Translations under genes and position numbers: made by a program
Part shown: piece after piece, positions 15,412 through 56,489 of the stretch
Layout of the letters: every line of letters starts with the position of its first letter
Numbering within the stretch: position 1 is the first letter of the stretch
The notes under the pieces: model-generated
What the model was told of the DNA's origin: nothing
The model's database searches: none
The model's input: the letters and a program-made list of their open reading frames with translations, nothing else
Assembly: GCA_041694835.1 (NCBI GenBank)
Contig: JBGFRZ010000082.1
Coordinates: forward strand, 52,266 to 116,265
Length of the DNA: 64,000 nt
Direction: 5' to 3'
DNA from: Ignavibacteria bacterium
GTDB taxonomy: Bacteria; Elusimicrobiota; Endomicrobiia; PHAN01

Positions 15412-15422
15412 ATATTTACCCT

Positions 15423-17057
15423 TTATCTAAGTTGGTTCAGGAACTGCGGAACCACTCTGTTTGTTGGATCTATTTCGAGCACCCGCATCCAGACCTCTTT
15501 TGCTTTTTCCGGCTGATCCATCATAAAGAAAGCGCTTCCCATAATTTCGTAAGCTGTCACATGGTTCGGTTCAAGATTCAGCACTTCCTGGGCTTTAATA
15601 AGGGCTTTGTCATATTTGCCGTCTATTATGGCTTGTCTTGCGTCGAAGATCTTCTGATCTATTATAGTAAATCCTGCGATTGTTTCCTTGAATGCTTCCG
15701 TAGGCGGGATGCCCATTTCTTTTTCAATCCTGTTCAACAAAGCAAGTAGCTTCATGTTCTCGGGTTTTTTGTAATAAGCATATCTGAAAGAGTTTATGGC
15801 GCCCGTGTCGTCGCCTTCTATATATGCTACAATCCCTTTTCTTGTCGCTACGGCATCTTCAGTATCTCCTACCACAGTGTCTATGTGACCTATTATTACC
15901 TGTAGTTTTTTGGACATATTCTGTGCATCTTTATTGGCCGGGTCTATATCAAGAAGTTTTTCAAGTCGATTGTGGGAAAGAAGCATGTCTCCTTTTCTGT
16001 AGGATTCTATAGCTTCTTTCATAAGACGCACCACTATAGCCGCTCTGTTAGCGCTTACCGATTCCCCTATTTTCCACGAACCGGATATTCTATGTGAAAG
16101 TCCGAGCTCATGCAAAGCAAACGCATAATCAAGCCCGTAATCTTTATATTTGAAACCAAAACCAGCGGTTGTCTCTCTTATTCTACCTTCGCCCTCGAAT
16201 CCGAGACGCATGGCAAGATAATTCATAAGCCAGTATTCTGTCCCTATGTGCCAGCCGAGATTTGCGTTAAGCGATTTTTCAATATCAAACGCCAGTAAAA
16301 ACTTTTTTTTCATAAACGGATGGGCCGCGCCGACTCTGAATATCATAGGAAGTTTGTCTTCCGTATCGCCAAAGCTCGTAGAAATTATGTTCCTGACACC
16401 GAAAGCAATTTTTATATCGGGCAACGTGTCATTTACTCCTTCAAGGAGCAGCGCAAGATCGAATGTTAGGGCTCCGCTTATAGAATCGGCCAGAGCATGG
16501 TTCATGTACTTCCCAGAAAGACCTATGGAGAGATTTTCTCTTATTCTTCTGCCGTATGCTGCCATTAAAGCCAGACGGGAATCTTCAAATGTGCCTAAAT
16601 TTTCAATCTTAACTATGTCCTGTGTAGTTGGGTCTATGTTTATCGCTATTTTTTCAAAACCGCCCGAGTGGAGACGGACGATGTTTGCTCCGAAAACTCC
16701 CAACTTTGCGGTTGGATGCACATACGACAGAAAGTTATAGTTGGTATCGGCAAAAAGCGTGGCATGGAGAGCCATAACTTCTTTCCTGTCAAGCTGGGTC
16801 AGAGCTGCCGGATTCCAGTAAGTAGCGGAGGCATCGTCGGAAACCGCGAAAAACGCTTTTCCCATACCAAGTGATTTAGCGCCAGCACCCCATGAAAGGA
16901 ACTGCCCAGGCTGGCCGCCGGTGGCAGCGGCAAAGACAGAGGATAGCGGCGAGAGACAAGAGACGAGAGAACAAATAAAAACAAAAGCCATCCCTGACAA
17001 AGTTTTTGCGACTTTGTTCGCTAGTTTTGTCGAGAGTTTTGTTTTTGAATTTTTCAT
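15423..17057 (-). CDS. FadL/OmpP1/PorV-like outer-membrane beta-barrel with C-terminal TPR domain (544 aa)
   Basis: A signal peptide is followed by GAKSLGMGKAFFAVSDDASATYWNPAAL, the FadL-family N-terminal signature. The body is beta-strand-rich. The C-terminal ~200 aa are TPR repeats. Confidence 0.55.
   Translation of the reverse strand: MKNSKTKLSTKLANKVAKTLSGMAFVFICSLVSCLSPLSSVFAAATGGQPGQFLSWGAGAKSLGMGKAFFAVSDDASATYWNPAALTQLDRKEVMALHATLFADTNYNFLSYVHPTAKLGVFGANIVRLHSGGFEKIAINIDPTTQDIVKIENLGTFEDSRLALMAAYGRRIRENLSIGLSGKYMNHALADSISGALTFDLALLLEGVNDTLPDIKIAFGVRNIISTSFGDTEDKLPMIFRVGAAHPFMKKKFLLAFDIEKSLNANLGWHIGTEYWLMNYLAMRLGFEGEGRIRETTAGFGFKYKDYGLDYAFALHELGLSHRISGSWKIGESVSANRAAIVVRLMKEAIESYRKGDMLLSHNRLEKLLDIDPANKDAQNMSKKLQVIIGHIDTVVGDTEDAVATRKGIVAYIEGDDTGAINSFRYAYYKKPENMKLLALLNRIEKEMGIPPTEAFKETIAGFTIIDQKIFDARQAIIDGKYDKALIKAQEVLNLEPNHVTAYEIMGSAFFMMDQPEKAKEVWMRVLEIDPTNRVVPQFLNQLR
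16911..16991. repeat. pyrimidine/purine-skewed low-complexity tract (ggcagcggcaaagacagaggatagcggcgagagacaagagacgagagaacaaa) encoding the signal-peptide h-region MAFVFICSLVSCLSPLSSVFAAATGG
   Basis: Direct reading of the DNA and its minus-strand translation. Confidence 0.55.
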
Positions 17058-17093: not shown

Positions 17094-17462
17094 TTAATGT
17101 ATGACTCCAATTTTTCTTAAAGCCACTATCTTCCCGCCATCGACGGAAACCACACAGATATATCCGCCCTTGGCGACGTAATGACCGTTTTCGTCGCGAC
17201 CGTCCCACAGGATTGTATCTCCAAAAAATTCGAGATGCTTGACGGGGCGGCCAAAAAGATCGAAAATTTTTACCGCAATTCCAACGTCGGTCTGATTTGA
17301 TTTTTTTACAAGGATGCTTGTGGAAGTTTTTCTCGAATCGAACGGATTGGGATAGTTTGAAAGAAATATGTCAGAAGATGATGCGACGGATGCCGTCAAC
17401 AAAAGAATTGATGAGGCGAAAGGGATAAGTAAAAGATAATTTAAAAAGTTGATGTGCTTCAT
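17094..17462 (-). CDS. small secreted protein consisting of a signal peptide plus T9SS type-A C-terminal sorting domain (FlgD-Ig-like CTD) only (122 aa)
   Basis: LSNYPNPFDS...VKIFDLFGRPV..L....ILWDGRDENGHYVAKGGYICVV...KIVALRKIGVIH matches the TIGR04183/PF13860 CTD pattern. It is the first gene of the operon. Confidence 0.5.
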   Translation of the reverse strand: MKHINFLNYLLLIPFASSILLLTASVASSSDIFLSNYPNPFDSRKTSTSILVKKSNQTDVGIAVKIFDLFGRPVKHLEFFGDTILWDGRDENGHYVAKGGYICVVSVDGGKIVALRKIGVIH

Positions 17463-17971
17463 AAATTGCCTTCGGTAACCCGGCCGCCATAATCTCGCAT
17501 TTTGCTTGATGTTAGGCCCGTATCCTGACCTATAGTCAGAATGACCCGATTCAACATCGGGATCGGCTTTGCGTCCTCCGGTTTCCCGGAGTTTGCCATT
17601 TATCGGACAATCCTTACGTTTCCATCTCCGCCACGGCGGAAGGGGGCTATCAAAATAAAAATGCTACCGAACTTCCGCCCGGTAGCATAAAGATAGGGGG
17701 TCCTAAAACTTGTTGCAAACCACTACAACCGCAACCGCTAACAAATTAAACTTACTACACCTTCTCTCGGTAGCCCGGCCAGCTCCCCCGACATTATGTC
17801 GGGGGCATCGCTCCGATTTCCCGAAACGATTTTGATAGCCCCCTATCTTTAGCTCCGCGGCTTTGCGTCCTCCGGTTTCCCGAAGTTTGCCTTTATCGCA
17901 ATATATATATAATAAAATTTATGACATTTGTCAAGGTTTTTTTAACAGCCGAAATTCTGCCAAAAATTGCA
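17463..17971. other. structured 510-bp non-coding leader/element: two 41-bp direct repeats (17565-17605, 17859-17899) flanking ~250 bp with perfect hairpins and a 15-bp inverted repeat
   Basis: The direct repeat ggctttgcgtcctccggtttcccg(g/a)agtttgcc(a)tttatcg occurs twice. gggggctatcaaaat at 17641 pairs with attttgatagccccc at 17826. The hairpin cccccgacattatgtcggggg has a 9-bp stem and gctaccgaacttccgcccggtagc a 7-bp stem. No ORF >=60 aa lies in this region. Confidence 0.5.
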
Positions 17972-18817
17972 CTAAACATTGTCTATCAGCCTTGTCCTGC
18001 CAACCTTGGCGGCTATCAGGATTCTTAAATTATTTTTCAGCGATATTCTCCCCTCAATATTCGTTAACGTTTTCGGATCGACAATTTCTACATATTCAAG
18101 ATTTATCCCGGAGATTTTTGAAACCGCTTTAGTTATATATTTTTTTACCGATACAATGTCTTTAAGATACCCCTCTGAAATTTTGACTTTCGCGTCCGAT
18201 ATCGCTTTATAAATTAATGCCGAATCTAATTTTTGACCCGTCGAAAGATATTTATTTCTGCTTGAAAACGCCAGTCCGAATTTTTCTCTTATAGTCGGAC
18301 ACGAAATGATTTTCACGGGGATATTTAAATCATCTACCATTTTTTCTATGATTTTCAGTTGTTGAAAATCCTTCGTGCCGAAATACGCTCTTGTCGGTTG
18401 GATAATGTTAAACAGTTTTAAGACGACGGTTGTAACTCCGCGAAAATGTCCCGGGCGGAATTTTCCGCAAAGTATGTCTGAAAGATTTTTCACTTCAACA
18501 AAAGTCAGATGCTCTTGTTTATAGATATCGTTTGTGGAAGGATAGAAAATTATGTCGACGCCAGTTTGTCGACAAATTTTTTTGTCTTGGCGAAATGTGC
18601 GTGGATATTTTTCAAAATCCTCGTTTTTGCCGAACTGCGCGGGATTTATAAATATCGAAACGACAACGAGAGCATTTTCTTTGCGAGCCCTTTTTATCAA
18701 AGAGAGATGTCCTTCGTGGAGCGCCCCCATCGTAGGGACAAAGCCGATTGTTTTGCCACACTTTTTAAGCTTTACAAAATATCTTTGGGCAACAACGGGT
18801 GAAGTGATTATCTTCAT
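17972..18817 (-). CDS. panC: pantoate--beta-alanine ligase (pantothenate synthetase)
   Basis: MKIITSPVVAQRY...GFVPTMGALHEGHLSLI (HxGH motif) ... FGKNEDFEKYPRT. Length and motif order are typical of PanC. The track ORF starts 19 codons upstream, but MKIITSP is the likely start. Confidence 0.85.
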   Translation of the reverse strand: MKIITSPVVAQRYFVKLKKCGKTIGFVPTMGALHEGHLSLIKRARKENALVVVSIFINPAQFGKNEDFEKYPRTFRQDKKICRQTGVDIIFYPSTNDIYKQEHLTFVEVKNLSDILCGKFRPGHFRGVTTVVLKLFNIIQPTRAYFGTKDFQQLKIIEKMVDDLNIPVKIISCPTIREKFGLAFSSRNKYLSTGQKLDSALIYKAISDAKVKISEGYLKDIVSVKKYITKAVSKISGINLEYVEIVDPKTLTNIEGRISLKNNLRILIAAKVGRTRLIDNV

Positions 18818-19018
18818 TTTGAAACCGCTGAAAAACCTGTCAATAGTCCACAGTCCGCAGATTCTGTCGACCATCGACTATCGACTAAATTCTTTTGGGT
18901 GTCAGAAGGCCTTTTTCAATACCCTCATTTTACAAATGTTCGATGCTTCAGACGATAAAAATCGACAATATTTAACAATGCTCCGACGATAAATTCGAAC
19001 AAATGTTCGAATTTTCAG

Positions 19019-19891
19019 TCAGAGATTTTTGCTAAAAAATCTCGTTATTGTTTTCTTATACTCATCCGTATGCTCTATATAAGCTGTGCCATGGCCGTGC
19101 GAATCGAAAACGACCAGTTCCTTGGGTTCCTCCGCTTTTTCATAAACCCTTTTTACCGCTTCAACCGGAATGTTTTCATCGCCAGAAGTAGCCAACAAAA
19201 GAACCGCTGTCGGCGAAACTTTCGATATATTTCGCATCGGAGAGTATCTCTCGGGCGAATGACCCAGGCGGATTATCGCACCCAGAATCGTAAGAACAAC
19301 AAGTGGGTGCCGCGGGAGATTAAGAAAAAGTTTCGCATGGTGGGCTGTAATTTCGTTGAAAGAATCAAAAGGGCTTTCGGCCACAACTGCGTTTATTCTT
19401 TTGTCTTTGGAAGCAGCGTATATTGCAGCGACACCACCCATAGAAAATCCGAAAACGCCTATCTTCGCCGACAGAGAAGGTTTTTCCTCTTTGAGATATT
19501 TCACGGCTGAGAGCATGTCCTCAGATTCATATTTTCCCATGGAGGTTTTATTTCCGCCACTTTCTCCGTGATTCGTAAAATCGAAATATAGAAGATTGTA
19601 ATGCTGATGGAGAAAAAATGTCGAATATAAAACATCGCCTTTAGAAGCGCCCCATCCGTGACAAATTATTATAGTTTTGGAAGTATTTTTCTGCGAAGTT
19701 ATAAACCAACCTGATATTTTTCGTCTGCCGGATTTAAACTCTATTTTTTCAAAAGGAATTTTTAAGTTGTCCGGCGTTACATAATCTCTTATGCGAGGTG
19801 CATTTAAAATTAAACGAGACGAAAACCATGCCCAAATTAAACAAGTGGTTAGAAAAATAAGTGCCCAAAAAACCGCAGGGTTGAGTTTCAA
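19019..19891 (-). CDS. alpha/beta-hydrolase fold protein with N-terminal TM anchor
   Basis: HGWGASKGD...FDFTNHGESGG and nucleophile elbow GFSMGG. C-terminal His/Asp follow. Confidence 0.6.
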   Translation of the reverse strand: MKLNPAVFWALIFLTTCLIWAWFSSRLILNAPRIRDYVTPDNLKIPFEKIEFKSGRRKISGWFITSQKNTSKTIIICHGWGASKGDVLYSTFFLHQHYNLLYFDFTNHGESGGNKTSMGKYESEDMLSAVKYLKEEKPSLSAKIGVFGFSMGGVAAIYAASKDKRINAVVAESPFDSFNEITAHHAKLFLNLPRHPLVVLTILGAIIRLGHSPERYSPMRNISKVSPTAVLLLATSGDENIPVEAVKRVYEKAEEPKELVVFDSHGHGTAYIEHTDEYKKTITRFFSKNL

Positions 19892-19892
19892 T

Positions 19893-21317
19893 CTATATCT
19901 TCCCCCATGGTTTTCTTTTTACAAATCGCCCGTGTCCGACGGTGCCGGTAAATTTTCCGTCTTTCGCTACGATTTTTCCGCGAGAGATTGTAACGGCGGG
20001 GTAACCTTTTAATTTCATACCCTGGAAAGGCGACCAGTCGCATCTGGTCTGCATATTATTAAAATCAATAACAACCCGTTTATTTGGGTCAAAGACGCAG
20101 ATATCGGCGTCGGAGCCGACTTTGATTGTTCCTTTCTGAGGGTATAGTCCGAAAATTTTGGCGGGGTTCGTTGAGACGACTTCCACGAATCTGTTGAGCG
20201 AGAGTTTTTTCTTGTTAACACCCGCGGTAAATATCGTCGGAACCATCGTCTCAAGCCCCGGTATACCGAATGGAATTTTTGTAAAATCCCCCTGCCACAT
20301 CGCTTTTTGTTTTGTGTCAAATGTGCAGGTGTCGGTTCCTATGGTGTCAATGTATCCTTTTTTCAATCCTTCCCAAAGACCCAGCTGGTCGTGTTTCTTT
20401 TTTACCTGCGGACAAATGCCGTAAAGGTGTCCCGTTTCCCTGGATTTATAAACATCGTCGGTCAAAAGGAGATAAGTCGGACAGGTCTCCGCCCATATTT
20501 TTACGCCGTCTCTTTTCGCCTCGCGCACAATCTCGGCGCTTTCCGACGCCGACATATGGACGATAAAAAGCCGTCCGCCCGTTTCTTTTGCCCAAGTCGC
20601 CGCGCGGCGGACCGCCTCGTATTCTGTATAACAAGGACGAGCCATCGCGTGAAGATAGGCGCCGTATTTATTCATCATCTCCTGCGTGTGGTATCTCTCA
20701 ATAAGGAGGTCCAGGACAATCGCACTCTCGGCGTGGACAAGGATTAGTCCTCCGTGTTTTGCCGTTTCCTCAAGCCCTTGAAAAAGTATTCCGTCGTCAG
20801 CCATCCAGCCCTGAGAGCGATAAATCATAAACATCTTAAAAGAGGTCACACCGTCCTTTACGAGGTCGCTCATATCTCTTCTCACATTCTCGTTCCACTT
20901 GGTTATTCCGCCGTGAAGAGCGTAATCCACGCACACTTTTCCGTCGGCTTCTTTCTTCCTCGCCTCAACGGTTTCAATAAGAGAACCCCCTTTGTCCTGT
21001 ATGGCTATGGCGAAATCAATAACGGTGGTCACGCCGCCGCATGCCGCGGCTTTCGTGCCATTTTCAAAATCGTCGCATGAAACCGTTCCGCAAAAAGGCA
21101 GCTGCAAATGCACATGGGCATCAATCGCGCCGGGAAAAACAAGCAATCCCCTGGCATCGAGCATATGGGCGCCATCTGCTCTGATGTCTTTTTTGACCGA
21201 GACGACTTTCTCTCCTTTGATGGCGATGTCGGCAACAAATGTCTTTTCGGCAAGAACGATTTTTCCGCCTTTAACGACTAAATCAAATGACATAAAACCT
21301 CCTCTTAATATAGGCAA
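19893..21317 (-). CDS. dihydropyrimidinase / D-hydantoinase (cyclic amidohydrolase)
   Basis: GAIDAHVHLQLPFCGTVSCDDFENGTKAAACGGVTTVIDFA parallels the dihydropyrimidinase metal-binding N-terminus (GGIDPHTHLQMPFMGT..DDF..GTKAAL.GGTT). Confidence 0.8.
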   Translation of the reverse strand: MPILRGGFMSFDLVVKGGKIVLAEKTFVADIAIKGEKVVSVKKDIRADGAHMLDARGLLVFPGAIDAHVHLQLPFCGTVSCDDFENGTKAAACGGVTTVIDFAIAIQDKGGSLIETVEARKKEADGKVCVDYALHGGITKWNENVRRDMSDLVKDGVTSFKMFMIYRSQGWMADDGILFQGLEETAKHGGLILVHAESAIVLDLLIERYHTQEMMNKYGAYLHAMARPCYTEYEAVRRAATWAKETGGRLFIVHMSASESAEIVREAKRDGVKIWAETCPTYLLLTDDVYKSRETGHLYGICPQVKKKHDQLGLWEGLKKGYIDTIGTDTCTFDTKQKAMWQGDFTKIPFGIPGLETMVPTIFTAGVNKKKLSLNRFVEVVSTNPAKIFGLYPQKGTIKVGSDADICVFDPNKRVVIDFNNMQTRCDWSPFQGMKLKGYPAVTISRGKIVAKDGKFTGTVGHGRFVKRKPWGKI

Positions 21318-21321
21318 AGAA

Positions 21322-21600
21322 AAATAGGAAATAGGGAACGATGGAAAGAACGGTGCCAGATGTCAGATGCAGGTTAAAACGACAGATACACGTTGTAGCG
21401 GCACCGCCTTGCAGTGCAAATAATTGGCATCGTAAAGCTTGTCCTCGCAGGGGAACGATGCATCTACCTGTATTCTGTATTTGCTTTTCCTTTATCCTGC
21501 ATCCTGTATCTGTTTTTTGGTATCCGGGATCCGGTATCCGCTATCGCTTTTGTCTGTTCTACTGCTCCGACCTCTGACCTCTCATCTCTGACCTCTGTTT
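21322..21600. repeat. long imperfect hairpin-like intergenic element: purine-rich arm (aggcaaagaaaaataggaaatagggaacgatgg...cagatgtcagatgcagg) then pyrimidine-rich arm (ttcctttatcctgcatcctgtatctg...gacctctgacctctcatctctgacctctg)
   Basis: Word-level reverse complementarity between the two halves, e.g. gatgcagg versus cctgcatc and cagata versus tatctg. No ORF is present. Confidence 0.45.
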
Positions 21601-22072
21601 ATTCCAGCATATATTCTTCAAAAGGAATTCCTTTCTTAATCAATTCTTCGCGCCAGAGTTGTTTTGCCTTCGGCATTTTTTCGCGTGAGCGTCTCACCCA
21701 TTTTGATTCGGGCGGCGAAAAGAGTTCCGCCGCCGTCTGATACCATACATATGCATATTTTATTGACGATTCTTCTCGTTCTCTTTTATTGTTAAACTCA
21801 ATGATTTCTGTTTGTATTTCGTATTCTTTCTGTGAGATTTTTTTTGAATCCAACTTCTTTTGAAGTGATGTTTTTTCTTTGGAGAGTTTTTCGTCAAAAA
21901 ACTTCTCTTTTAATTGAGGGTTTTCGTGCCATGCCCAAAACTTTTCGCCTTCAAGATACGCCGAGCGAGCACGCATTACAACATCAACATAAATGAGCGC
22001 ATAAACTGCAATTATGGTAGCAACGACCGAGGCGGCAATTCTTTGCCATTTTTTAGGAAATAATTTATTCAT
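21599..22072 (-). CDS. hypothetical membrane-anchored protein (157 aa)
   Basis: Track ORF with an N-terminal TM segment (IAASVVATIIAVYALIYV). No recognisable motif. Confidence 0.3.
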   Translation of the reverse strand: MNKLFPKKWQRIAASVVATIIAVYALIYVDVVMRARSAYLEGEKFWAWHENPQLKEKFFDEKLSKEKTSLQKKLDSKKISQKEYEIQTEIIEFNNKREREESSIKYAYVWYQTAAELFSPPESKWVRRSREKMPKAKQLWREELIKKGIPFEEYMLE

Positions 22073-22469
22073 CTTTGTTTTTTATCTTTTTATGTCTTTA
22101 ATGTCGTGCGTCCGATAAAAATGTTCTTTTAATCTCTATAATCGTTTTCAACCTGCTCTTCTTTTTCCACAAACTCTTTTATCTACCTGCGATGATTCGG
22201 TTACTCCAAAAAATTTTCGTCTTGTTTTTCTCATTTGAGCGAGCACATTAAGAGAGGTTTAAAAATTTTTCTTCGTTGAGCGATTCTGCTTCTTCGTAAC
22301 TTCCCTGTCTCCAATAGATTTTTCTTCCATCTGATATTTTTTTCTAATTTTCATAATAGTGTTCCGGACAATGTTTTCATTGGTTTATTTCGCACAGAGG
22401 ATTTTTAATTGAGACCCGTCTCCAATTCCATCCAATTCCAAATTCTGACAATTTACCACTGCTTTTATT

Positions 22470-23474
22470 CTAAACAGATAGTAATTTTAATTGATGAATA
22501 TGTTGATACCGATAATGATTACGTTTAATCAAAGAATGCTTTTTTTCAATGTCAACTTCTTTCAATCTTCGAATAGCAATTTTTACATATTCACTATTAG
22601 AATCAATTCCAATGTATTTCTTTTCTAATATCTTGGCAGCGACTGTCGTGGTAGCGCTCCCAACAAAAGGGTCTAATATAATGGCATTTTTAGAAAAAGC
22701 CGATAACTGAATCAAATATTCACAGATCGCTAATGGTTTCACTGTTTTATGTAGATTATAATCTCCTTTTTCTTTCTTTGATGGTTTGGGCAACAGGAAC
22801 ACTTTATCAATCTCAGTGTTTATGTTTTCAGTGGTAATTACATTTGCTGGATACATATTTTTACCCAATCTAATATTCGTATTTACCAAACCAACTTTGT
22901 ATTTCAACATGTTGTTTAGATAAGTAGTGTCTGTCGGTTTTTGCGCCACAGCAATAGGTTCAAAACAAGATTTAATCTGCGGGGTCTTCCATCCGTGCAA
23001 TCTTTCTCTAATAATATTTTTTTGGTCATTGCCAGCTCCCATCTTATCAATAAAATGATTAAGCCCCATTGCCTTTGCCTGATTTTGAGTATAGAGCCAC
23101 ATGAAAACATCTCTGATCTCAAATCCCGCATCGTCCAATGCTGATGCCATTCTATGATATAGGCGAGGACTAGAAAATGAAAAGAAAAATCCACCGGGTT
23201 TCAATAATCTGATAATTTCCTTTGATATTTTTAAATACCAACTATAAAATCTGACGCCTTGTTCTCTCTCAAATTTCATTCCAGCTGGCAATGACTTTAT
23301 GATGTAGTGATTGCGTGTATTAGTTACTACTTCATGATTCCATTGGTTGTCCAGTTTATCTAAAAAATACGGGGGGTCAGTTATAACAAGATCTATTGAA
23401 TTGCTTTCAATTTGCGGAAGCACGTTTAATGCATTATCACATATAATTTTATTCAAAAATTTTTTGTTTTTCAT
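22470..23474 (-). CDS. DNA methyltransferase, N6-adenine/N4-cytosine (PF01555-type, DPPY motif)
   Basis: LVITDPPYF is motif IV. ILDPFVGSATTTVAAKILEKKYIGIDSNSEYVKIAIRRL is the C-terminal AdoMet motif I. The gene is visibly AT-richer than its flanks. Confidence 0.8.
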   Translation of the reverse strand: MKNKKFLNKIICDNALNVLPQIESNSIDLVITDPPYFLDKLDNQWNHEVVTNTRNHYIIKSLPAGMKFEREQGVRFYSWYLKISKEIIRLLKPGGFFFSFSSPRLYHRMASALDDAGFEIRDVFMWLYTQNQAKAMGLNHFIDKMGAGNDQKNIIRERLHGWKTPQIKSCFEPIAVAQKPTDTTYLNNMLKYKVGLVNTNIRLGKNMYPANVITTENINTEIDKVFLLPKPSKKEKGDYNLHKTVKPLAICEYLIQLSAFSKNAIILDPFVGSATTTVAAKILEKKYIGIDSNSEYVKIAIRRLKEVDIEKKHSLIKRNHYRYQHIHQLKLLSV

Positions 23475-23477
23475 ACT

Positions 23478-23972
23478 CTATTTTATTTCGGAAGGTTTTT
23501 TACCGTCAAACTTATCATATAGAATTTTGTAAATTTTTATTTTTATCTCTCTATCGCAAGTTCTTACCACATTTGAATCGGCAACTTTTATTACTCTGCC
23601 TTTTTCGTCATAAACCCATCTATTCCTATCTCCACGATTACACTTTTGACATTGAGGAATAATATTATCCGCAACTAATGGTTTACGAGGATTCATATGA
23701 GCTTTTTGTAATTTTGTTTTTGTGGCAGGCCAATGCAAATGAGGCAGTCCTTCTTCGGAACCACATGTGGCGCATCTAAAATGATATTTTTCTTTCATCT
23801 TACTCCAATCGTCCGTATCACTAATTCTATGTCCTTTTTTAAAAGATGGGTAGGGCTTTTCTAATGTGTATAATTGATACTCCCCCCTTTTAAGATTCAA
23901 GACGATATTATCTCTGCCCCCTGCCACAATCCACCAACCTTTTTGTGCTCCTAAATGCCTGGCCTGTTGCAC
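23478..23972 (-). CDS. HNH endonuclease (probable restriction-endonuclease partner; 5' part appears frameshifted, with a protein-like reading continuing to ~24190 in two frames)
   Basis: FRCATCGSEEG...NIIPQCQKCNRGDRNR is an HNH/Zn-finger motif. The track ORF begins at a GTG. Upstream, the same frame continues protein-like (..LVYLAQNYPYTNKVTKEELTRFIREFDPDVND) up to a TAA. A 45-codon ATG ORF (MDKNEIYRIYHTIIKECHAKHLEKYGVGLPRLHDASGNFKRMRLF) sits in another frame. Confidence 0.45.
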   Translation of the reverse strand: MQQARHLGAQKGWWIVAGGRDNIVLNLKRGEYQLYTLEKPYPSFKKGHRISDTDDWSKMKEKYHFRCATCGSEEGLPHLHWPATKTKLQKAHMNPRKPLVADNIIPQCQKCNRGDRNRWVYDEKGRVIKVADSNVVRTCDREIKIKIYKILYDKFDGKKPSEIK

Positions 23973-24205
23973 ATCATTGACATCAGGGTCAAACTCTCGA
24001 ATAAATCTCGTTAGTTCTTCTTTAGTAACTTTATTCGTATATGGATAGTTCTGAGCTAAATAAACTAAAACAAGCGCATCCTTTTAAAATTGCCAGAAGC
24101 ATCATGAAGTCTAGGTAAACCAACCCCATATTTTTCCAAATGTTTTGCATGACACTCTTTAATAATAGTGTGATAAATTCTATATATTTCGTTCTTATCC
24201 ATATT

Positions 24206-25414
24206 TTATGTTTTCATTTCGAGTGTCACGCAGGATTCTACGGGGCAAATCACGGCGCAGAGGCCGCATCCGACGCATTTTTCTTCGTCGACCGACGGCA
24301 AACGGTTGCTGTCAAGGGTAATCGCTTGATGTCCCCCGTCGGAACATCCAAGATAACAAAGGTCACATTTCTCGCAGGTTTCTTTGTCGATTTTGCTGAC
24401 CGGCTTTTTTTCTCTTGAAAGAGCGACGTGCGAAGAGATTTTTTGTGCAGAAACGCCGACCATGTCGGATATTTTTGCAAAGCCCTTGTCGTCCATGAAG
24501 TTTGAAAGTCCGTCTTTGAGGTCCTCGACGATTCTATAGCCGTAATGCATTGCCGCTGTACAGACCTGAAGTCCCGACGCTCCCATAAGTAAAAACTCGG
24601 CAGCGTCCCGCCAAGTGGTTATTCCGCCCATTCCCGATATCGGAAGACCCAGACGTTCGTCGAGATAAAGTTCGGTAATGAATCTGAGCGCAATCGGTTT
24701 TACGGCGGGACCTGACAATCCTCCGAGAGCGGATTTTCCGTTTACCGTTGGGAGCGGAATCAGTGTTTCAAGGTCAACACCAATTACCGCCTGAACGGTG
24801 TTTATCGCGGCTATGGCATCCGCTCCGCCGTTTTTTGCGGCAAGAGCGGGCTCTCTCATATCTGTGATATTAGGTGTGAGTTTTGCAAGAACAGGCATTT
24901 TGCCCGCGGCTTTTTTTACCCATCCGCAGACCTTCTCGACGTTTGAAGGCGATTTCCCCGTCGCAGAGCCCATTCCTTTTTCAGGCATTCCGTGGGGACA
25001 TCCGAAGTTTAATTCAAGTCCGTCGACGCCGCAGTCAAGCACTTTTTTCGTTATTTCCGTCCACGACTCTTCGTCGTTTGCAACCATTAGCGACGCTACT
25101 ACGACATTTTTTGGATATTTTTTTTTCGTCTCGCGGATTTCTTTTAAGTTTACTTCAAGGGTTCTGTCGGTTATCATCTCTATGTTTTCAAGCGCGATGA
25201 GTTTTTTGTCCTCGTAGTCAAGTCCGGCAAGGCGCGGGCTGACGTTGACAATCGGAGTTTTTTCTTCCAATCCGAGAGTTTTCCAGACGGCGCCGCCCCA
25301 GCCGGCGTCAAACGCCCTCTGAATCATCTCGCCGGTATTTGTCACCGGACTTGAAGCCAACCAGAACGGATTTTGGGATTTGATACCACAAAAATCAATC
25401 GAAATGTCCGCCAT
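24206..25414 (-). CDS. preA: NAD-dependent dihydropyrimidine dehydrogenase subunit PreA-like (DHOD-like TIM barrel + two 4Fe-4S ferredoxin motifs)
   Basis: The N-terminus MADISIDFCGIKSQNPFWLASSPVT and the NFGCPHGMPEKGMG motif are PreA/DPD-like. The C-terminus CEKCDLCYLGCSDGGHQAI...CVGCGLCAVICP carries 2x[4Fe-4S] motifs. Length is 402 aa. Confidence 0.75.
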   Translation of the reverse strand: MADISIDFCGIKSQNPFWLASSPVTNTGEMIQRAFDAGWGGAVWKTLGLEEKTPIVNVSPRLAGLDYEDKKLIALENIEMITDRTLEVNLKEIRETKKKYPKNVVVASLMVANDEESWTEITKKVLDCGVDGLELNFGCPHGMPEKGMGSATGKSPSNVEKVCGWVKKAAGKMPVLAKLTPNITDMREPALAAKNGGADAIAAINTVQAVIGVDLETLIPLPTVNGKSALGGLSGPAVKPIALRFITELYLDERLGLPISGMGGITTWRDAAEFLLMGASGLQVCTAAMHYGYRIVEDLKDGLSNFMDDKGFAKISDMVGVSAQKISSHVALSREKKPVSKIDKETCEKCDLCYLGCSDGGHQAITLDSNRLPSVDEEKCVGCGLCAVICPVESCVTLEMKT

Positions 25415-25430
25415 AAAACCTCCTGACTCC

Positions 25431-25545
25431 GCTATAGCGGGAAGTTAAAGGTCAAAGGATAAAGGGTAAAGGTCAAAATATTTAGATTTTATACCTTTAA
25501 TTTTAACCTTTCACCTTAAATTTTAACCTTTATATTCTTCTTATC
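25431..25545. repeat. purine-arm/pyrimidine-arm imperfect hairpin element (aaaggtcaaaggataaagggtaaaggtcaaaat ... tacctttaattttaacctttcaccttaaattttaaccttt)
   Basis: The two arms are reverse complements at word level. The element is intergenic between the M20 amidase and preA. Confidence 0.45.
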
Positions 25546-26757
25546 AATCTCCAAAACTGTGTTTAGTAAAACATTTATGCCTTTGCAACAGTCATCAAGT
25601 GATGTAAATTCTAACTCGCAATGACTGTGTCCGTCTTTAGACGGAACAAAAATCATCGTGGCGGGAATTATATCGGCGACATACTGAGCGTCGTGACCTG
25701 CTCCGCTGTACATCTTTTTGCTTGTGTATCCGAAGGCGTCCGCACTTTTTTGGACAAGAGCGACTAATTCTTCGTTGAATCTGACCGTTTTGCGCGACCA
25801 TGCCTCTTCGCATTTCACTTCGCACTTGTCAAATTCTTTTGGAATGTTTTTGATTATTTCCACAACTTGTTTTATGACTTCCGGTTCCTTGTGTCTTGCG
25901 TCCAATGAAAAATCCACATAGTCGGGTATGACGGTATGGATATTCGGATGGCAGATTATATTACCCGTCGTATAGACAAGAGCGCTGTCAAGTTTGTCAA
26001 GTTCCCGGTGAAGATATTTAATCGCGGAAGCCGCGGCCAATAGAGCGTCTCGTCTGAACTTCATCGGCGTTGTTCCCGCGTGGTCGGACTGCCCATAAGT
26101 TCTTATTCTGTAATTTACCATTCCCAAAACACCTTCTACAACACCGATTTCTTTTTTTTCGGCTTCAAGCACGGGGCCTTGTTCAATATGCAACTCCAAC
26201 ATCGCTATGTAATCTTTCGGATTGAGCCGGTTCGATTGAGCGCCGACGTATCCACTCTCTTTTAGCGCTTCGCCGAATGTTTTTCCGTCGGGGCTTTTTG
26301 ACGAGAGTATTTTTTCTTTTTCAAACTTGCCGCAGACGACGCCTGATGAGAGCATCGCCGGAGGATAGAGTGAGCCCTCTTCGTTGGTCCAGATCATAGC
26401 GGTAACAGGGTGATTGTGGGGAATTTTTTGCGTAGCGAGTGTTTCCACTACTTCAAGAGCCGCAATGACTCCCAAAATGCCGTCGTAGTTGCCACCGTTT
26501 CTTACGGAATCGCAGTGGGAAGCAATCACAATTTTCGGAAGGCCTTTTTCGGGACCGGGGTGCGTCGCATACATATTTGCCATGTCGTCGGTTACGGTTT
26601 TTGCGCCTACTGAATTCATTCTTTTGACAAACTCGGCTCTTGCCTGAAGGTCTTCTTTCGACAGCGAAAATCTCGTTATTCCGCCGCGGGCCGTAGCGCC
26701 GAATTTCGCGAAAGTTTCGATTTTATTTTTTACTCTTTCTTTGTTGCAAGTCAGCAT
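25516..26757 (-). CDS. M20-family hydantoinase/carbamoylase-type amidase (N-carbamoyl-beta-alanine / N-carbamoyl-amino-acid amidohydrolase, beta-ureidopropionase-like)
   Basis: ASHCDSVRNGGNYDGILGVIAALEV and the HIEQGPVLE motif are typical of the allantoate amidohydrolase/AmaB family. Confidence 0.7.
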   Translation of the reverse strand: MLTCNKERVKNKIETFAKFGATARGGITRFSLSKEDLQARAEFVKRMNSVGAKTVTDDMANMYATHPGPEKGLPKIVIASHCDSVRNGGNYDGILGVIAALEVVETLATQKIPHNHPVTAMIWTNEEGSLYPPAMLSSGVVCGKFEKEKILSSKSPDGKTFGEALKESGYVGAQSNRLNPKDYIAMLELHIEQGPVLEAEKKEIGVVEGVLGMVNYRIRTYGQSDHAGTTPMKFRRDALLAAASAIKYLHRELDKLDSALVYTTGNIICHPNIHTVIPDYVDFSLDARHKEPEVIKQVVEIIKNIPKEFDKCEVKCEEAWSRKTVRFNEELVALVQKSADAFGYTSKKMYSGAGHDAQYVADIIPATMIFVPSKDGHSHCELEFTSLDDCCKGINVLLNTVLEIDKKNIKVKI

Positions 26758-26903: not shown

Positions 26904-28742
26904 CTATCTACCATCCAACTCCAGTTCTTTCAACTTTTCCTGCTTCGGTATTCCTTCTTCATCCCATCCGCGATGGACATAATACTCCATAACCATTTTT
27001 GCGACATTCGGGACCACGCCTTTCGCTTTTCCTTCTTTTTTCGGATATACGGTAATTCTCGACGGTTCCAGGTCATCTTTTCTTGAAATGCCGAGGCGCG
27101 TGTTGTAGAGCCGTTTTAAATCGAACAATCGCTCGCCTGTTTTCATATAGTCGTCGAGTGTCCAGTCCCATCCACAAACGGCGTTGACCCAGTTTGAAAT
27201 CTGCGACGGACCCACACGGGCGTGAAACAGAAATTTACAGAGTCCGAGCGGATTAAATAATGATATAAAATTTTGCATCTCAAAAACAATTTTCGGTTTG
27301 TCGGTTTCTTCAAACTGGTTCGGCGGGGCGGTGATTCCCAGATCTTTGCAAGGGACGCCCCTATCAAGAAAGTATGTGAGACCTTCAAGATGACACGCAC
27401 CTCTTGCGGCGGTCGCGTAGTTGATTGCCATAGAGACATGTCCTCTCGGGTCGTGGGCGGGAAAGTCAAGTCCTTTGTTGTGAGAAACATACTCGATAGT
27501 ATTTTTGCCGATGGCTTTTGCCGCATCTCTGACACCTTTTGCAAGGAGAACACCGATGTTTTTTTTGTAAGCGGTCATCTTAATTATTTCAACGAGAGTC
27601 TTCGCGTCGCCCCATTTGAACTCAACGTCTCCAGTGTCTGCTCTTGTGATTTTTCCTTTCTCGTAACACTCAATCGCAAACGCGGCGACAGAGCCCATGG
27701 AAATCGTATCCATACCGAGCTTATTTGTGAGTTCGTTTATATACGCCAATACATAGAGGTCGTTATTTAAAACATTTGAGCCGAGCATCGCGACGGTCTC
27801 ATACTCGGGATAGTGGCCACAGAAACTTCCGAAGTTCTTTAACTCGCCCTTGACGAGCTTGCCGCAGCCGATGGGACATGCCCAGCAAGCGTAGTGCTTG
27901 ACCCAGATTTTTTCTCTCATCGCCTGTCCCGAAATTTTTACAATATCGGGATACGTTCCAATGGCGTAATTTTTTATCGGAAGGTCGCCGAACGACTCAA
28001 CTGCAGGAGAGCCGCCGGCAGTACCAAATTCTCCGAGGGCTTTTGCATTTTCTTTTATCGCGGGTATTTCTTCTTTAAGCAGTGCTCTTAATTTTTCGGG
28101 GTCTGCGACGGCGACTCTTTTCCCCTGACCTTTTACGACGATAGCTTTAAGGTTTTTTGAGCCCATGTTGGCACCGATGCCCGAGCGCGCCGCAAAACGG
28201 GAATTGGGCGGGTCAAAACAAATTGCGGCTATACTGACAAGATTTTCTCCAGCAGGGCCTATCGCGGCGACGAGATGCTTCTCATGTCTCTTTGAGAGAA
28301 TTTCACCGGTTTCGTAGGTATCCTTTCCCCACAAATCACTGGCATCCTGTATCCTGCATCCTGCATCTATTATTAGATAAACCGGCTTATTGGATTTTCC
28401 CGTTATTAAAATTCCGTCATATCCGAGCATCCTGAATTCCGTCGGCCAATGGCCGCCCACGGTCGCTTCGTTCCAAATGCCCGTAAGCGGCGATTTTGCG
28501 CAGACGGACATTTTGCAGGCAGTCGGCACGACTGTCCCGGTTAAAAGCCCCGACAAAAACAAAATTGGATTTTCTTCTGAAAGTGGCGCGAGGTTAACAG
28601 GGGCTTCGTTGTAAAGAATCTTTGCGGCAAGACCCGAGCCGAGCGTATATTTTTTGACATCCGTCTCATTGATTGGTTTCTCGCCGATTTTTCCCGACGA
28701 CAAATCAACGGTTAAAATTTTCCCATGAAATCCGTTCGGCAT
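26904..28742 (-). CDS. aldehyde:ferredoxin oxidoreductase (tungsten-containing AOR family)
   Basis: The N-terminus MPNGFHGKILTVDLSSGKIGEKPINETDVKKYTLGSGLAAKILY matches the AOR N-terminus pattern (M.G..GKILRVDL..G.I). Length is 612 aa. Confidence 0.8.
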   Translation of the reverse strand: MPNGFHGKILTVDLSSGKIGEKPINETDVKKYTLGSGLAAKILYNEAPVNLAPLSEENPILFLSGLLTGTVVPTACKMSVCAKSPLTGIWNEATVGGHWPTEFRMLGYDGILITGKSNKPVYLIIDAGCRIQDASDLWGKDTYETGEILSKRHEKHLVAAIGPAGENLVSIAAICFDPPNSRFAARSGIGANMGSKNLKAIVVKGQGKRVAVADPEKLRALLKEEIPAIKENAKALGEFGTAGGSPAVESFGDLPIKNYAIGTYPDIVKISGQAMREKIWVKHYACWACPIGCGKLVKGELKNFGSFCGHYPEYETVAMLGSNVLNNDLYVLAYINELTNKLGMDTISMGSVAAFAIECYEKGKITRADTGDVEFKWGDAKTLVEIIKMTAYKKNIGVLLAKGVRDAAKAIGKNTIEYVSHNKGLDFPAHDPRGHVSMAINYATAARGACHLEGLTYFLDRGVPCKDLGITAPPNQFEETDKPKIVFEMQNFISLFNPLGLCKFLFHARVGPSQISNWVNAVCGWDWTLDDYMKTGERLFDLKRLYNTRLGISRKDDLEPSRITVYPKKEGKAKGVVPNVAKMVMEYYVHRGWDEEGIPKQEKLKELELDGR

Positions 28743-29027: not shown

Positions 29028-29816
29028 CTATTTCAAAAAATCACAGATAGACCCAACTAAACCAGAAAAATTGCCAATACCGTCAAGATGGTCGTAATTA
29101 TTCAAAACAAACAATCCCCCTCCAAGTTTAATATCATCAATAATCAGTTGCACTTCTGTCTGTTTTACTGTTTTTCTGGTTTTTCCACTTTCATTATATT
29201 TATCAAAATCCCTATATCTTGCCCAATCAAGAGTAATAAAACCATATTTGATTTGTAAATTTTCTTTTGTAAAAATGACCGTATATTTATCTTTACCATA
29301 TTTTGCATTTAATACATCTTGATCCATCAAAAATAAATGAGATAAAAATTGTCCGATTCTTTCTCTTGTTGTACCTTTTGCCGATAATATAAAAGCCTTT
29401 TTTATTTTTTCAAAATTATCTTTAACAACTACAATATCACTATCAAATTTCTTGATGTGACTTGTATTTTTTCTCACAAGACACAGAGAATTGGTAACAT
29501 AAGAAATAATATCGTTATAAGTTTTGTGGTTTGTTGCCAAATAATTTAATTTATTTTCCTTGAAGTAAGCATTGAGTAAATATACTATACTTTCTTCTAC
29601 CAATTTTCCAAGAACCGAATCTTTGCTTGATTTTTCTTGCCTTGCTTCGTCCTCTGTTTTCTTCTTATCAAATTGCGAAGCATATTTTTTAGCATATTTA
29701 TTTGCATCTGAAAAAATGAAGTATTTATTCAAGTTTACCCCAACATTTAAACTACCTTTGTCTTTTATCACTTTGCCTAATTTTCCTTCTAAATAACTTT
29801 TGTGAACTAAATCCAT
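29028..29816 (-). CDS. hypothetical protein, candidate type II restriction endonuclease (partner of adjacent methyltransferase)
   Basis: Immediately downstream (18-bp gap) of the MTase gene. It is AT-rich with no recognisable family motif. The call rests on gene context only. Confidence 0.35.
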   Translation of the reverse strand: MDLVHKSYLEGKLGKVIKDKGSLNVGVNLNKYFIFSDANKYAKKYASQFDKKKTEDEARQEKSSKDSVLGKLVEESIVYLLNAYFKENKLNYLATNHKTYNDIISYVTNSLCLVRKNTSHIKKFDSDIVVVKDNFEKIKKAFILSAKGTTRERIGQFLSHLFLMDQDVLNAKYGKDKYTVIFTKENLQIKYGFITLDWARYRDFDKYNESGKTRKTVKQTEVQLIIDDIKLGGGLFVLNNYDHLDGIGNFSGLVGSICDFLK

Positions 29817-29833
29817 AATAAACCCTCTTTCCT

Positions 29834-30706
29834 TTATAAAAGTTTAGGTTGTCTTGCAACAATCTTTATATTTTTTTCTGCTATTTCACAATATTCTCGG
29901 CAATTATCTATATAAATATATTTTCTTTCAGTTTTTACACTAACAACTGGAACTGTTCCAGTTCCCCCAAAAGGGTCTAAAACTATATTATCAATGTATG
30001 AATAAAATTTAACTAAACGATATATAAGTTTTTCTGGAAAGGGTGCCGGATGTCCTTTTGGTTGAGTTTGAGGTTTTATGTCCCAAAATGAATTTGAAAA
30101 TTCTATAAATTCCTCTTTTGTAATATCTATCTTTTTAGGTTCTCCCTCTAATTTTTTTTCTTCTTTACTAAACACTAATACGAATTCATACGGTTGAACA
30201 ACATAAGGATTTGATGGAGATTTCCAAGAACCCCAAGCAGTTCTTTTCGAAATTGCTTGTTTATACCACAATATATCACCTCTCATAATATAGCCAATTT
30301 TTCTCATTTGATTAACGACATCTACAAAAAGTGGTTGATATTGTCCGTCAGCCGTCACACTTGGTACATTTATGCAAATTCTACCTCCTTTAATTAAAAC
30401 ACGATAGCATTCAAACCAAACTTTTTCAAGCCAATCTAGATATTCCTTGTAAGGCATATTATCATAATGGTTCTTGTATGGTTTTCCTACATTATATGGT
30501 GGGGATGTAATTATAAGATGAATAAAATTTTCCGGCATTAATTTCATAACTTCTACACAATCACCACAAATAACTTGATTTATAAACCTATTTTCCGATT
30601 GAACAAGAATTTCTTTTTGAGTAATTGTGTGATATGGTATTACCGTTTCTTCCAACAAATTATTCTTTGTTACTTTCTTTTTTTTATATTCCATTGATTT
30701 ATCCAA
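29834..30706 (-). CDS. DNA methyltransferase, N6-adenine/N4-cytosine (PF01555-type, SPPY motif)
   Basis: ITSPPYNVGKPY is motif IV. VLDPFGGTGTVPVVSVKTERKYIYIDNCREYCEIAEKNI is motif I. The gene is AT-rich. Confidence 0.8.
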   Translation of the reverse strand: MDKSMEYKKKKVTKNNLLEETVIPYHTITQKEILVQSENRFINQVICGDCVEVMKLMPENFIHLIITSPPYNVGKPYKNHYDNMPYKEYLDWLEKVWFECYRVLIKGGRICINVPSVTADGQYQPLFVDVVNQMRKIGYIMRGDILWYKQAISKRTAWGSWKSPSNPYVVQPYEFVLVFSKEEKKLEGEPKKIDITKEEFIEFSNSFWDIKPQTQPKGHPAPFPEKLIYRLVKFYSYIDNIVLDPFGGTGTVPVVSVKTERKYIYIDNCREYCEIAEKNIKIVARQPKLL

Positions 30707-31998: not shown

Positions 31999-32049
31999 TA
32001 TTTTTCTATCCCCTATTTTCTATCCCCTATTTTCTATCCTCTATTCTTT
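31999..32049. repeat. 3 tandem copies of a ~14-bp unit (tattttctatcccc)
   Basis: The DNA reads ctatttttctatcccctattttctatcccctattttctatcctctattc, intergenic between the biotin-carrier and CoA-transferase genes. Confidence 0.6.
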
Positions 32050-32337
32050 GACCTTAACAAGTATATCATTTTTTCCAACTTTATTGCCAACTTTCACGAA
32101 AATCTTCTCTATTTTCCCTTTAACTTCTGAAATTATCTCGTTTTCCATTTTCATCGCTTCCAGAATTATAATCGTTTCTCCCGACGATACGGCATCCGTT
32201 TCTTTTTTTTTGACTTCAATTATAACGCCGGGGATAGGCGAAGCGATAAGATAAGGATTATTGGCCTTTTCTGCACGGATTTTTTTGTCCGGAAATTCGG
32301 TAATATACTCTCCGTCTTCAAGAATCAGTTTGTCCAT
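32041..32337 (-). CDS. biotin carboxyl carrier / biotin-lipoyl attachment domain protein
   Basis: EAMKMENEI carries the AMKM biotinyl-lysine motif. The start was chosen at MDKLILEDGEY, because the track ORF's extra 21 N-terminal codons are read through a low-complexity hairpin element (32338-32449). Confidence 0.7.
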   Translation of the reverse strand: MDKLILEDGEYITEFPDKKIRAEKANNPYLIASPIPGVIIEVKKKETDAVSSGETIIILEAMKMENEIISEVKGKIEKIFVKVGNKVGKNDILVKVKE

Positions 32338-43787: not shown

Positions 43788-43799
43788 AAAAGGAGAATT

Positions 43800-49826: not shown

Positions 49827-49835
49827 AAGTTTGAA

Positions 49836-56484: not shown

Positions 56485-56489
56485 ACAAT

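Follow-up and report, generated by a model that had tools for sequence, protein, structure and literature searches.

Pyrimidine degradation genes in the window

The 64-kb stretch of DNA analysed here (hereafter the window; contig JBGFRZ010000082.1 of assembly GCA_041694835.1) derives from an Endomicrobiia-like member of the Elusimicrobiota. Between 17.9 and 34.0 kb it carries a gene cluster that, according to the open reading frame (ORF) list and family scans, lies on the minus strand throughout. Genes for the dihydropyrimidine dehydrogenase (DPD) subunit PreA, dihydropyrimidinase, an M20-family carbamoylase, pantoate--beta-alanine ligase (PanC) and a tungsten-type aldehyde:ferredoxin oxidoreductase (AOR) share this strand. 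An earlier note, made from the sequence alone, had assigned the first three enzymes to pyrimidine catabolism and had proposed that they supply beta-alanine for pantothenate. The present study concerns the pathway encoded by the cluster and the part that the AOR may play in it. Gene calls are the ORFs of at least 100 aa in the window; overlapping, probably spurious ORFs were left out of the family scans.

Read in the direction of transcription, the cluster begins with an acyl-CoA carboxyltransferase of the MmdA/PccB-like type (32450-33985, Pfam Carboxyl_trans, 653 bits), a biotin carboxyl carrier protein (BCCP; 32041-32400, Pfam Biotin_lipoyl, with an EAMKM biotinylation motif in the translation) and a family III CoA-transferase (30823-31959, Pfam CoA_transf_3, 439 bits). 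The AOR (26904-28742; AFOR_N 234.5 bits, AFOR_C 413.8 bits), the M20 hydantoinase/carbamoylase-family amidase (25516-26757; TIGR01879 382 bits with a cut-off of 204, NF006771 542 bits with a cut-off of 399) and PreA (24206-25414; NF006183, 601.6 bits, cut-off 335) follow. Next come a 157-aa single-pass membrane protein (p157; 21599-22072), whose homologues lie beside PreA in relatives, and dihydropyrimidinase (PydB; 19893-21317; TIGR02033 equivalog, 472 bits, cut-off 393). The series closes with an alpha/beta-fold hydrolase with an N-terminal hydrophobic segment (19019-19891; Pfam Abhydrolase_1 and others) and PanC (17972-18874; TIGR00018 324.8 bits, cut-off 213; Pfam Pantoate_ligase 342.8 bits). 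PreA, dihydropyrimidinase, M20 and PanC thus exceed the curated NCBIfam cut-offs.

The assignment of PreA, dihydropyrimidinase and M20 to the pyrimidine pathway is supported by these scores and by what is known of their relatives. PreA (402 aa) consists of the domains DHO_dh and Fer4_21 only and has no FAD/NAD(P)H domain. It keeps the catalytic GCPHGM motif of DPD and two CxxCxxCxxxC motifs (eight Cys for two clusters), and among solved structures it matches the FMN domain of pig DPD (residues 531-852) best. The best solved matches of dihydropyrimidinase are bacterial D-hydantoinases/dihydropyrimidinases. Solved relatives of the M20 protein include the N-carbamoyl-beta-alanine amidohydrolase 8C46 and yeast beta-alanine synthase. 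In the closest relatives of the cluster, the slot between AOR and PreA is occupied by a nitrilase-superfamily amidase (CN_hydrolase) with Drosophila and human beta-ureidopropionase as best solved matches; in the window, M20 occupies exactly the same slot. A second metagenome-assembled genome (MAG) of Endomicrobiia (locus L094) has the order M20-PreA-HicAB-p157. A 70%-identical M20 homologue of Treponema primitia ZAS-2 (L095) is found in a cluster with dihydropyrimidinase, a DPD composed of Fer4_20, DHO_dh and Fer4_21, a class-III aminotransferase and an iron-dependent alcohol dehydrogenase. Because of this shared slot, the contexts in L094 and L095 and the solved relatives, we read M20 as an in-place, non-orthologous replacement of ureidopropionase and propose it, by family and context, as the beta-ureidopropionase (PydC). 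The nearest M20 homologues (80-84% identical) belong to the Clostridia Alkaliphilus, Clostridium and Natronincola. No other gene of the cluster comes nearly as close to a sequence from outside Elusimicrobiota, and this suggests a recent acquisition of M20 across phyla.

A different classification, that of a D-hydantoinase paired with an L-carbamoylase, had been named in the earlier note, together with a panD elsewhere in the genome, as the outcome that would refute its proposal. It draws on the label D-hydantoinase carried by the best solved matches of dihydropyrimidinase and on the annotation of several M20 homologues as N-carbamoyl-L-amino-acid hydrolase. However, a DPD catalytic subunit is useless for hydantoin, and bacterial 'D-hydantoinases' are dihydropyrimidinases (TIGR02033 is an equivalog). 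The beta-ureidopropionase-like nitrilase in the M20 slot of relatives and the T. primitia cluster, in which the M20 clade is joined to DPD, aminotransferase and alcohol dehydrogenase, likewise point to a Pyd cluster. We therefore regard the hydantoin classification as scarcely credible.

The grouping of the pyrimidine genes is not a matter of chance, since it recurs in related loci, at least 15 of them after removal of redundancy. The closest PreA homologues (91, 85 and 76% identical) stem from MAGs of Elusimicrobiota/Endomicrobiia. The common order in relatives is carboxyltransferase, BCCP, CoA-transferase III, AOR, ureidopropionase, PreA, p157 and dihydropyrimidinase. GCA_002841695.1 and two metagenomes have a BrnT module between CoA-transferase and AOR, a CN_hydrolase as ureidopropionase, a 6-kb insertion between p157 and dihydropyrimidinase, and the alpha/beta hydrolase and PanC at the end. 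In the 76% relative, an NCS1 nucleobase transporter precedes the carboxyltransferase, SatD stands between CN_hydrolase and PreA, and an ATP-cone/uridine-kinase-family gene follows dihydropyrimidinase in place of PanC. The order carboxyltransferase-BCCP-CoA-transferase-AOR is kept in L001 and L005. Carboxyltransferase, BCCP and CoA-transferase genes overlap by 4 nt in L001, and CoA-transferase and AOR are separated by 2 nt in L005 and overlap by 1 nt in L008, which indicates operons.

Homologues of p157 (59-76% identical) lie directly after PreA in L176 (3766-4242), L001 (11309-11785), L094 (3493-3969, there with HicAB in front) and L005 (11207-11677). The protein is confined to clusters without PreT, the partner subunit of PreA, and always stands after PreA (Elusimicrobiota). 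Its N-terminus contains a single transmembrane helix, its C-terminal half is highly conserved (ESSIKYAYVWY..ELFSPPESKWV), and Cys is absent; it gave no match in Pfam or NCBIfam.

An AOR clade linked to pyrimidine genes

As the earlier note had remarked, a tungsten-type AOR precedes the pyrimidine set; its gene lies directly upstream of M20. It resembles AOR and formaldehyde:ferredoxin oxidoreductase (FOR) of Pyrococcus furiosus in its two domains, its Fe-S motif and its catalytic Glu and His. P. furiosus AOR (1AOR) is the best solved match (phmmer, 390 bits), presumably with moderate identity; E315 and H451 correspond to E313 and H448 in 1AOR, and the cluster motif CWACPIGC is present. Unlike the P. 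furiosus enzymes, the window AOR belongs to a separate clade with invariant residues of its own and a fixed link to pyrimidine genes. FOR prefers acid-substituted aldehydes, e.g. succinic semialdehyde.

To describe this link, loci were gathered with the window AOR from species-representative genomes and with an alignment of the AOR clade from metagenome contigs; the scans were pattern-seeded, and the loci are those among the matches listed (at most 80 per scan). The resulting 176 loci were annotated by BLAST against reference proteins of the window and its relatives. Collapse at 95% identity left 147 non-redundant AORs, from which a simple neighbour-joining tree was computed.

Among loci with a flank of at least 3 kb, the presence of two or more Pyd genes follows the identity to the window AOR: 8/8 loci at 55% identity or above, 6/10 at 49-55%, 1/43 at 45-49% and 0/67 below 45%. 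In the tree, all pyrimidine-linked AORs descend from one node, under which 19 sequences fall in total. Two or more Pyd genes accompany 15 of these 19 and none of the 128 AORs outside the clade (Fisher 3e-17). Some pathway gene is present in 18/19 clade loci, the three beyond the 15 showing dihydropyrimidinase, aminotransferase or CoA-transferase on short contigs. Members of the clade come from Elusimicrobiota, Spirochaetota and unassigned contigs and are found in at least six gene orders, for example CN_hydrolase-AOR-...-dihydropyrimidinase-aminotransferase-PreT-PreA or AOR-aminotransferase-dihydropyrimidinase-CN_hydrolase-PreA. Since several phyla and several gene orders are involved, the linkage of AOR to pyrimidine genes has been maintained and not merely inherited. 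Invariant residues specific to the clade, H435, D460 and R461, are close in sequence to the catalytic His451. In the full-text literature outside subscription journals, we found no paper in which pyrimidine degradation or malonate semialdehyde is connected with an AOR.

These counts also bear on the view that AOR, CoA-transferase and the carboxyltransferase/BCCP pair are chance neighbours which belong to another fermentation, such as the succinate-propionate type. A fumarate hydratase gene lies just upstream of the window cluster and, together with an MmdA-like carboxyltransferase, is typical of propionate fermentation; the window cluster has no aminotransferase to make an aldehyde, and synteny among close relatives could be explained by descent. 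Yet the link of the AOR clade to pyrimidine genes holds in different phyla and in varied gene orders, the AOR sometimes standing between ureidopropionase and dihydropyrimidinase, and it is absent from all 128 AORs outside the clade. Moreover, the CoA-transferase may be swapped for another family at the same position, and the L005 cluster has no fumarase. Chance neighbourhood is thus improbable in our judgement.

Three further observations concern related AORs. Sister AORs (45-48% identical) recur in modules of IclR, an iron-dependent alcohol dehydrogenase, AOR, CoA-transferase III and an ABC transporter (L147 7781-17493, L114, L120, L123, L136, L145); this fits AOR and CoA-transferase acting as a unit. 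Another group of AORs adjoins a carboxyltransferase (L110-L113). The modules of both groups may stand for the oxidation of alcohols to acyl-CoA with other substrates. A protein that shares 90% identity or more with the window AOR, named 'putative oxidoreductase YdhV', is present on a 3.2-kb contig binned as Syntrophomonadaceae/Bacillota, which is probably mis-binned or a recent transfer.

Proposed degradation past beta-alanine

Taken together, the conserved partners argue for a catabolic role. It is probable, in our view, that the cluster serves the anaerobic breakdown of uracil and thymine past beta-alanine in these Elusimicrobiota, by way of AOR, CoA-transferase and decarboxylation. We favour catabolism past beta-alanine because the conserved partners are an NCS1 transporter, AOR, CoA-transferase and (methyl)malonyl-CoA genes. 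By family membership, PreA reduces the pyrimidine ring, dihydropyrimidinase opens the reduced ring and the M20 enzyme would release beta-alanine or beta-aminoisobutyrate. These three steps are the already known pathway; new would be the continuation past beta-alanine by an AOR, which we infer from the gene neighbourhood. An aminotransferase, clustered in other lineages and missing from the window, would yield malonate or methylmalonate semialdehyde. The AOR would then oxidise the semialdehyde to the free dicarboxylate with reduction of ferredoxin, the family III CoA-transferase would convert (methyl)malonate to (methyl)malonyl-CoA, and carboxyltransferase and BCCP would take off the carboxyl group to give acetyl- or propionyl-CoA. 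The acyl-CoA product could be used again as CoA donor. On the uracil branch the sequence would run from malonate semialdehyde through malonate and malonyl-CoA to acetyl-CoA, on the thymine branch from methylmalonate semialdehyde through methylmalonate and methylmalonyl-CoA to propionyl-CoA or succinyl-CoA.

The position of the AOR at the semialdehyde step is suggested by two things: a class-III aminotransferase lies in or beside the cluster in 12/19 clade loci, and aerobes have a semialdehyde dehydrogenase or reductase at this step. A CoA-transferase is found beside the AOR or in the 10-kb flank in 13/19 clade loci and belongs to family III in eight and to the two-subunit family I in five. In these five loci the family I enzyme directly follows the AOR; among the loci compared, this enzyme does not occur outside the clade. 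Family I and family III CoA-transferases are non-orthologous replacements of each other. Because one family replaces the other, the AOR product would be a free acid in need of re-activation. The best NCBIfam matches of the window CoA-transferase are dicarboxylate CoA-transferases, all below cut-off; its closest solved structure is E. coli YfdE (acetyl-CoA:oxalate), and it is also similar to succinate-hydroxymethylglutarate CoA-transferase. A route via beta-alanyl-CoA ammonia-lyase, with CoA-transferase and a small hot-dog protein, was considered and dropped, as p157 is a membrane protein without a family match, an AOR requires an aldehyde as substrate and aminotransferases are found along with the AOR.

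The carboxyltransferase scores 833 bits with TIGR01117 (mmdA), below the cut-off of 998.8. Among solved structures it is closest to Thermotoga maritima 1VRG, with PccB and the 12S subunit of transcarboxylase next. An Ile stands in the place of D422 of PccB, which, going by work on PccB, is compatible with both acetyl- and propionyl-CoA. The downstream modules vary by lineage yet always act on (methyl)malonyl-CoA: a PccB/MmdA-type carboxyltransferase with BCCP in the window, biotin carboxylase with BCCP in L008, and methylmalonyl-CoA mutase, B12 subunit, MeaB and epimerase in Spirochaetota.

Known systems resemble parts of this scheme. In the oxalate cycle, formyl-CoA transferase/YfdE acts together with oxalyl-CoA decarboxylase; decarboxylation of malonate via malonyl-CoA is also known. 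The likeness consists in a family III CoA-transferase acting on a short dicarboxylate and in a decarboxylation that regenerates the CoA donor, whereas the partner in the oxalate cycle is a thiamine diphosphate enzyme and the candidate partner here is the biotin carboxyltransferase/BCCP pair, with a substrate predicted from context. The Pyd pathway (PydABC) shares the first three reactions and their enzyme families, the aminotransferase step in many related clusters and an end of the carbon at the level of acetyl- or propionyl-CoA. It is reported to be extended by PydD and PydE to 3-hydroxypropionate in Bacillus smithii (PMC6816092) and by PydD and a CoA-acylating malonic semialdehyde dehydrogenase to acetyl-CoA in Bacillus megaterium (PMC7082587). 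There an NAD(P)-dependent dehydrogenase or reductase acts on the semialdehyde, whereas here a ferredoxin-linked AOR is proposed to give the free acid, which would be re-activated by CoA-transferase and then decarboxylated or isomerised; moreover, PreT is missing here.

The lack of PreT raises the matter of the electron donor. PreT stands directly before PreA in L008, L010, L032, L099-L103, L108 and L117, and it is not next to PreA in any of the Elusimicrobiota loci (window, L001, L005, L009, L094 and L176). The earlier note had stated that no panD and no PreT-like partner are present in the window, and this held: no family match to PreT/GltD-like proteins, PanD or class-III aminotransferase was found among the called genes of the window, and tblastn of its 64 kb gave nothing with PreT and aminotransferase references, nor with an E. 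coli PanD query (a sequence not taken from a database). A DPD without NAD(P)H module that depends on ferredoxin has been demonstrated biochemically, namely PydAc of Clostridium chromiireducens (PMC7332683). PydAc and the window PreA are alike in that they lack the FAD/NAD(P)H module, belong to a pyrimidine cluster of a strict anaerobe and have ferredoxin as the likely donor. The DPD of the T. primitia locus L095 has the PydAc architecture. Direct reduction of PreA by ferredoxin is plausible and, as no PreT is present, the ferredoxin may be that reduced by the AOR. More speculatively, AOR-reduced ferredoxin would feed the PreT-less PreA, so that ring degradation would be redox-neutral, and the co-oriented PanC downstream would draw on the beta-alanine intermediate. 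A comprehensive version of the scheme, with an AOR clade dedicated to (methyl)malonate semialdehyde, its ferredoxin re-oxidised by a minimal PreA in a redox-balanced fermentation, a cycle of CoA-transferase and biotin-dependent decarboxylase and PanC tapping beta-alanine, is in our estimation doubtful as a whole.

One more distant member of the Elusimicrobiota is arranged differently. Its cluster (L009 1-4584, same contig as L012) has the order AOR-CN_hydrolase-HycI-NCS1-carbonic-anhydrase-like-PreA-dihydropyrimidinase, is PreT-less and has in front of it genes for HdrA-like, MvhD/FlpD-like, Fe-S and FAD-binding proteins, which might constitute an alternative electron-supply module.

Several points weigh against the proposed degradation past beta-alanine. 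Every step after beta-alanine is derived from gene neighbourhood. The window cluster and its closest relatives contain no aminotransferase, and for this reason the supply of substrate to the AOR depends on a gene outside the cluster that is not seen. The window shares the carboxyltransferase alpha subunit and the biotinylated carrier with Mmd-type decarboxylases, but the membrane carboxybiotin decarboxylase (beta subunit), like the 5S transcarboxylase subunit, is not among the annotated genes of the window; the beta subunit may be encoded in another part of the genome. The biotin carboxylase of L008 is ATP-dependent and suits carboxylation better than decarboxylation. PydAc has N-terminal and C-terminal Fe-S domains (four clusters), whereas the window PreA has the C-terminal one only and no Fer4_20, and PreT could be encoded elsewhere in the genome. 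In L176, an unrelated surface protein lies directly upstream of PreA on a short contig without AOR or ureidopropionase gene. A pyrimidine-cluster setting had been expected for the closest Clostridia homologues of M20 and was rejected, the two looked at being stand-alone genes outside pyrimidine clusters; the support for M20 comes from the Endomicrobiia and Treponema contexts.

The ATP-dependent biotin carboxylase of L008, which is next to BCCP, CoA-transferase and AOR, could also be read in favour of the reverse direction. In that case acetyl-CoA would be turned into malonyl-CoA, malonate, malonate semialdehyde (by the AOR) and beta-alanine, a new biosynthetic route to PanC. AORs are able to reduce acids in some organisms, and PanC is adjacent in the window. 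Against this direction, ferredoxin-driven reduction of acids is thermodynamically hard, the cluster already yields beta-alanine from pyrimidines, and the window has neither biotin carboxylase nor aminotransferase. Furthermore, the nucleobase importer, the nucleoside phosphorylases and the methylmalonyl-CoA mutase module of relatives make sense for breakdown only. We hold synthesis by this route to be very improbable.

Although tungsten AORs occur widely among anaerobes, a physiological substrate has, to our knowledge, been assigned to few of them; the clade fixed to pyrimidine genes offers a concrete candidate. If degradation past beta-alanine proceeds as proposed, ferredoxin-linked oxidation would be a third fate of malonic semialdehyde, after reduction to 3-hydroxypropionate and CoA-acylating oxidation. 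It would also account for the pathway in anaerobes which lack the NAD(P)H subunit of DPD, and it suggests that nucleobases are recycled for carbon, nitrogen and possibly energy in Elusimicrobiota and Spirochaetota.

PanC and the genomic setting of the cluster

PanC probably starts at Met-20 (18817), as the alignment to the family model begins at residue 20-24. The earlier note had placed the pyrimidine genes on the same strand immediately upstream of panC. The strand is indeed shared, but the alpha/beta hydrolase intervenes. The clustering with panC is real in the window, in L176 (PreA 91%) and in L001-3 (PreA 85%), all with the order dihydropyrimidinase-hydrolase-PanC; the remaining 16 non-redundant loci in the AOR clade do not have it, and in another genome of the Endomicrobiales (L177) PanC follows PanB. 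Because it is confined to the window, L176 and L001-3, the PanC link appears to be recent and local, a single lineage-specific addition that does not define the cluster.

This distribution bears on the proposal that the three pyrimidine enzymes mainly supply beta-alanine to PanC in an organism without aspartate decarboxylase. In the window and two close relatives, the genes for dihydropyrimidinase, hydrolase and PanC share one orientation with little space between them, and hydrolase and PanC overlap by 4 nt in L001; no panD was found in the 64 kb; and L176 keeps PreA, p157, dihydropyrimidinase, hydrolase and PanC without an upstream AOR on its short contig. There is also a precedent, as Rhizobium etli, whose genome has no panD, was shown genetically to obtain beta-alanine for pantothenate via the uracil pathway (PMC7142369). 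In both cases PanC could be fed by a beta-alanine synthase that belongs to the pyrimidine pathway; the difference is that genetics stands behind the Rhizobium case, and gene adjacency within a shallow clade, with PreA identities of 85% or more, behind the present one. On the other side, nucleobase transporter, AOR, CoA-transferase and (methyl)malonyl-CoA enzymes use up the carbon skeleton and do not save it, and a need on the scale of a vitamin requires no full, transporter-equipped pathway. Supply of pantothenate as the main purpose is therefore unlikely in our opinion; as a side branch of the proposed degradation, at most, it is plausible. If true, it would be a further example of the route known from Rhizobium. 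The alpha/beta hydrolase matches best, though weakly (65 bits, far under the cut-off), a family of quorum-quenching lactonases, and a role in pantoate or pantolactone metabolism would be pure speculation.

The three pyrimidine genes, which the earlier note had treated as one set, are all present but not contiguous, as PreA and dihydropyrimidinase are separated by p157 and by a restriction-modification insertion at 22470-23972 (minus strand). The latter comprises a methyltransferase (22470-23474, Pfam N6_N4_Mtase) and a Cys-rich 164-aa putative endonuclease (23478-23972). A similar insertion on the same strand separates CoA-transferase and AOR and consists of an N6/N4 methyltransferase (29834-30706, Pfam N6_N4_Mtase) and a BsaWI-like endonuclease (29028-29816, Pfam RE_BsaWI). 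The GC content is 0.34 in the 22470-23972 island and 0.37 in the 29028-30706 island, compared with about 0.45 in the flanks. The former is absent from its site in L001, L005 and L176, and L094 has a HicA toxin module there (3047-3477). At the latter site, CoA-transferase and AOR of relatives either adjoin each other or enclose a BrnT toxin module (L001 6469-6968). Since the GC dips coincide with the blocks and both sites lack them in relatives, both methyltransferase blocks are insertions and stand outside the pathway. The 164-aa ORF had been considered as a conserved small neighbour of PreA; this was rejected, since the alignment concerns 21599-22072 instead and the ORF is part of the insertion. 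Three restriction-modification-like islands are present in the 64 kb, two of which split the metabolic cluster, the third (55468-57221) being located between gyrB and gyrA. As the intergenic sites of the window islands carry toxin-antitoxin modules (BrnT, HicA) in relatives, selfish modules seem to have landed repeatedly in the cluster, and yet it has been kept.

That the cluster is near the replication origin follows from rnpA-yidC-mnmE and dnaA-dnaN-gyrB-gyrA, which the window also contains, and from a change of strand and skew near 43.7 kb. A tRNA gene (43703-43788, plus strand) marks the switch point and is followed on the plus strand by rnpA, yidD, yidC, jag, mnmE, the rRNA dimethylase gene and dnaA (43941-51236), a layout that is typical of origin-proximal DNA.

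A scan for promoter consensus sequences was uninformative (52 matches, 38 expected). Two tandem c-di-GMP-I riboswitch aptamers, at 17765-17900 and 17471-17607 on the minus strand, score 60 and 45 bits, both above the gathering score. PanC lies on one side of the pair and, on the other, a 122-aa ORF (17094-17462) that carries a type IX secretion C-terminal domain. A strong hairpin with a T-run at 17688-17661 was considered as PanC terminator and dropped, as it lies between the two aptamers and is probably theirs. Several c-di-GMP enzymes (GGDEF, HD-GYP-like) are also encoded in the window. The regions 5694-13581 and 13597-17057, both on the minus strand, hold very large ORFs (1015 and 1616 aa) without a Pfam match. 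These are followed by a 604-aa protein with FliG middle and C-terminal domains and TPR repeats and then by a TPR/UPF0164 protein, all of them downstream of the small secreted protein under riboswitch control.

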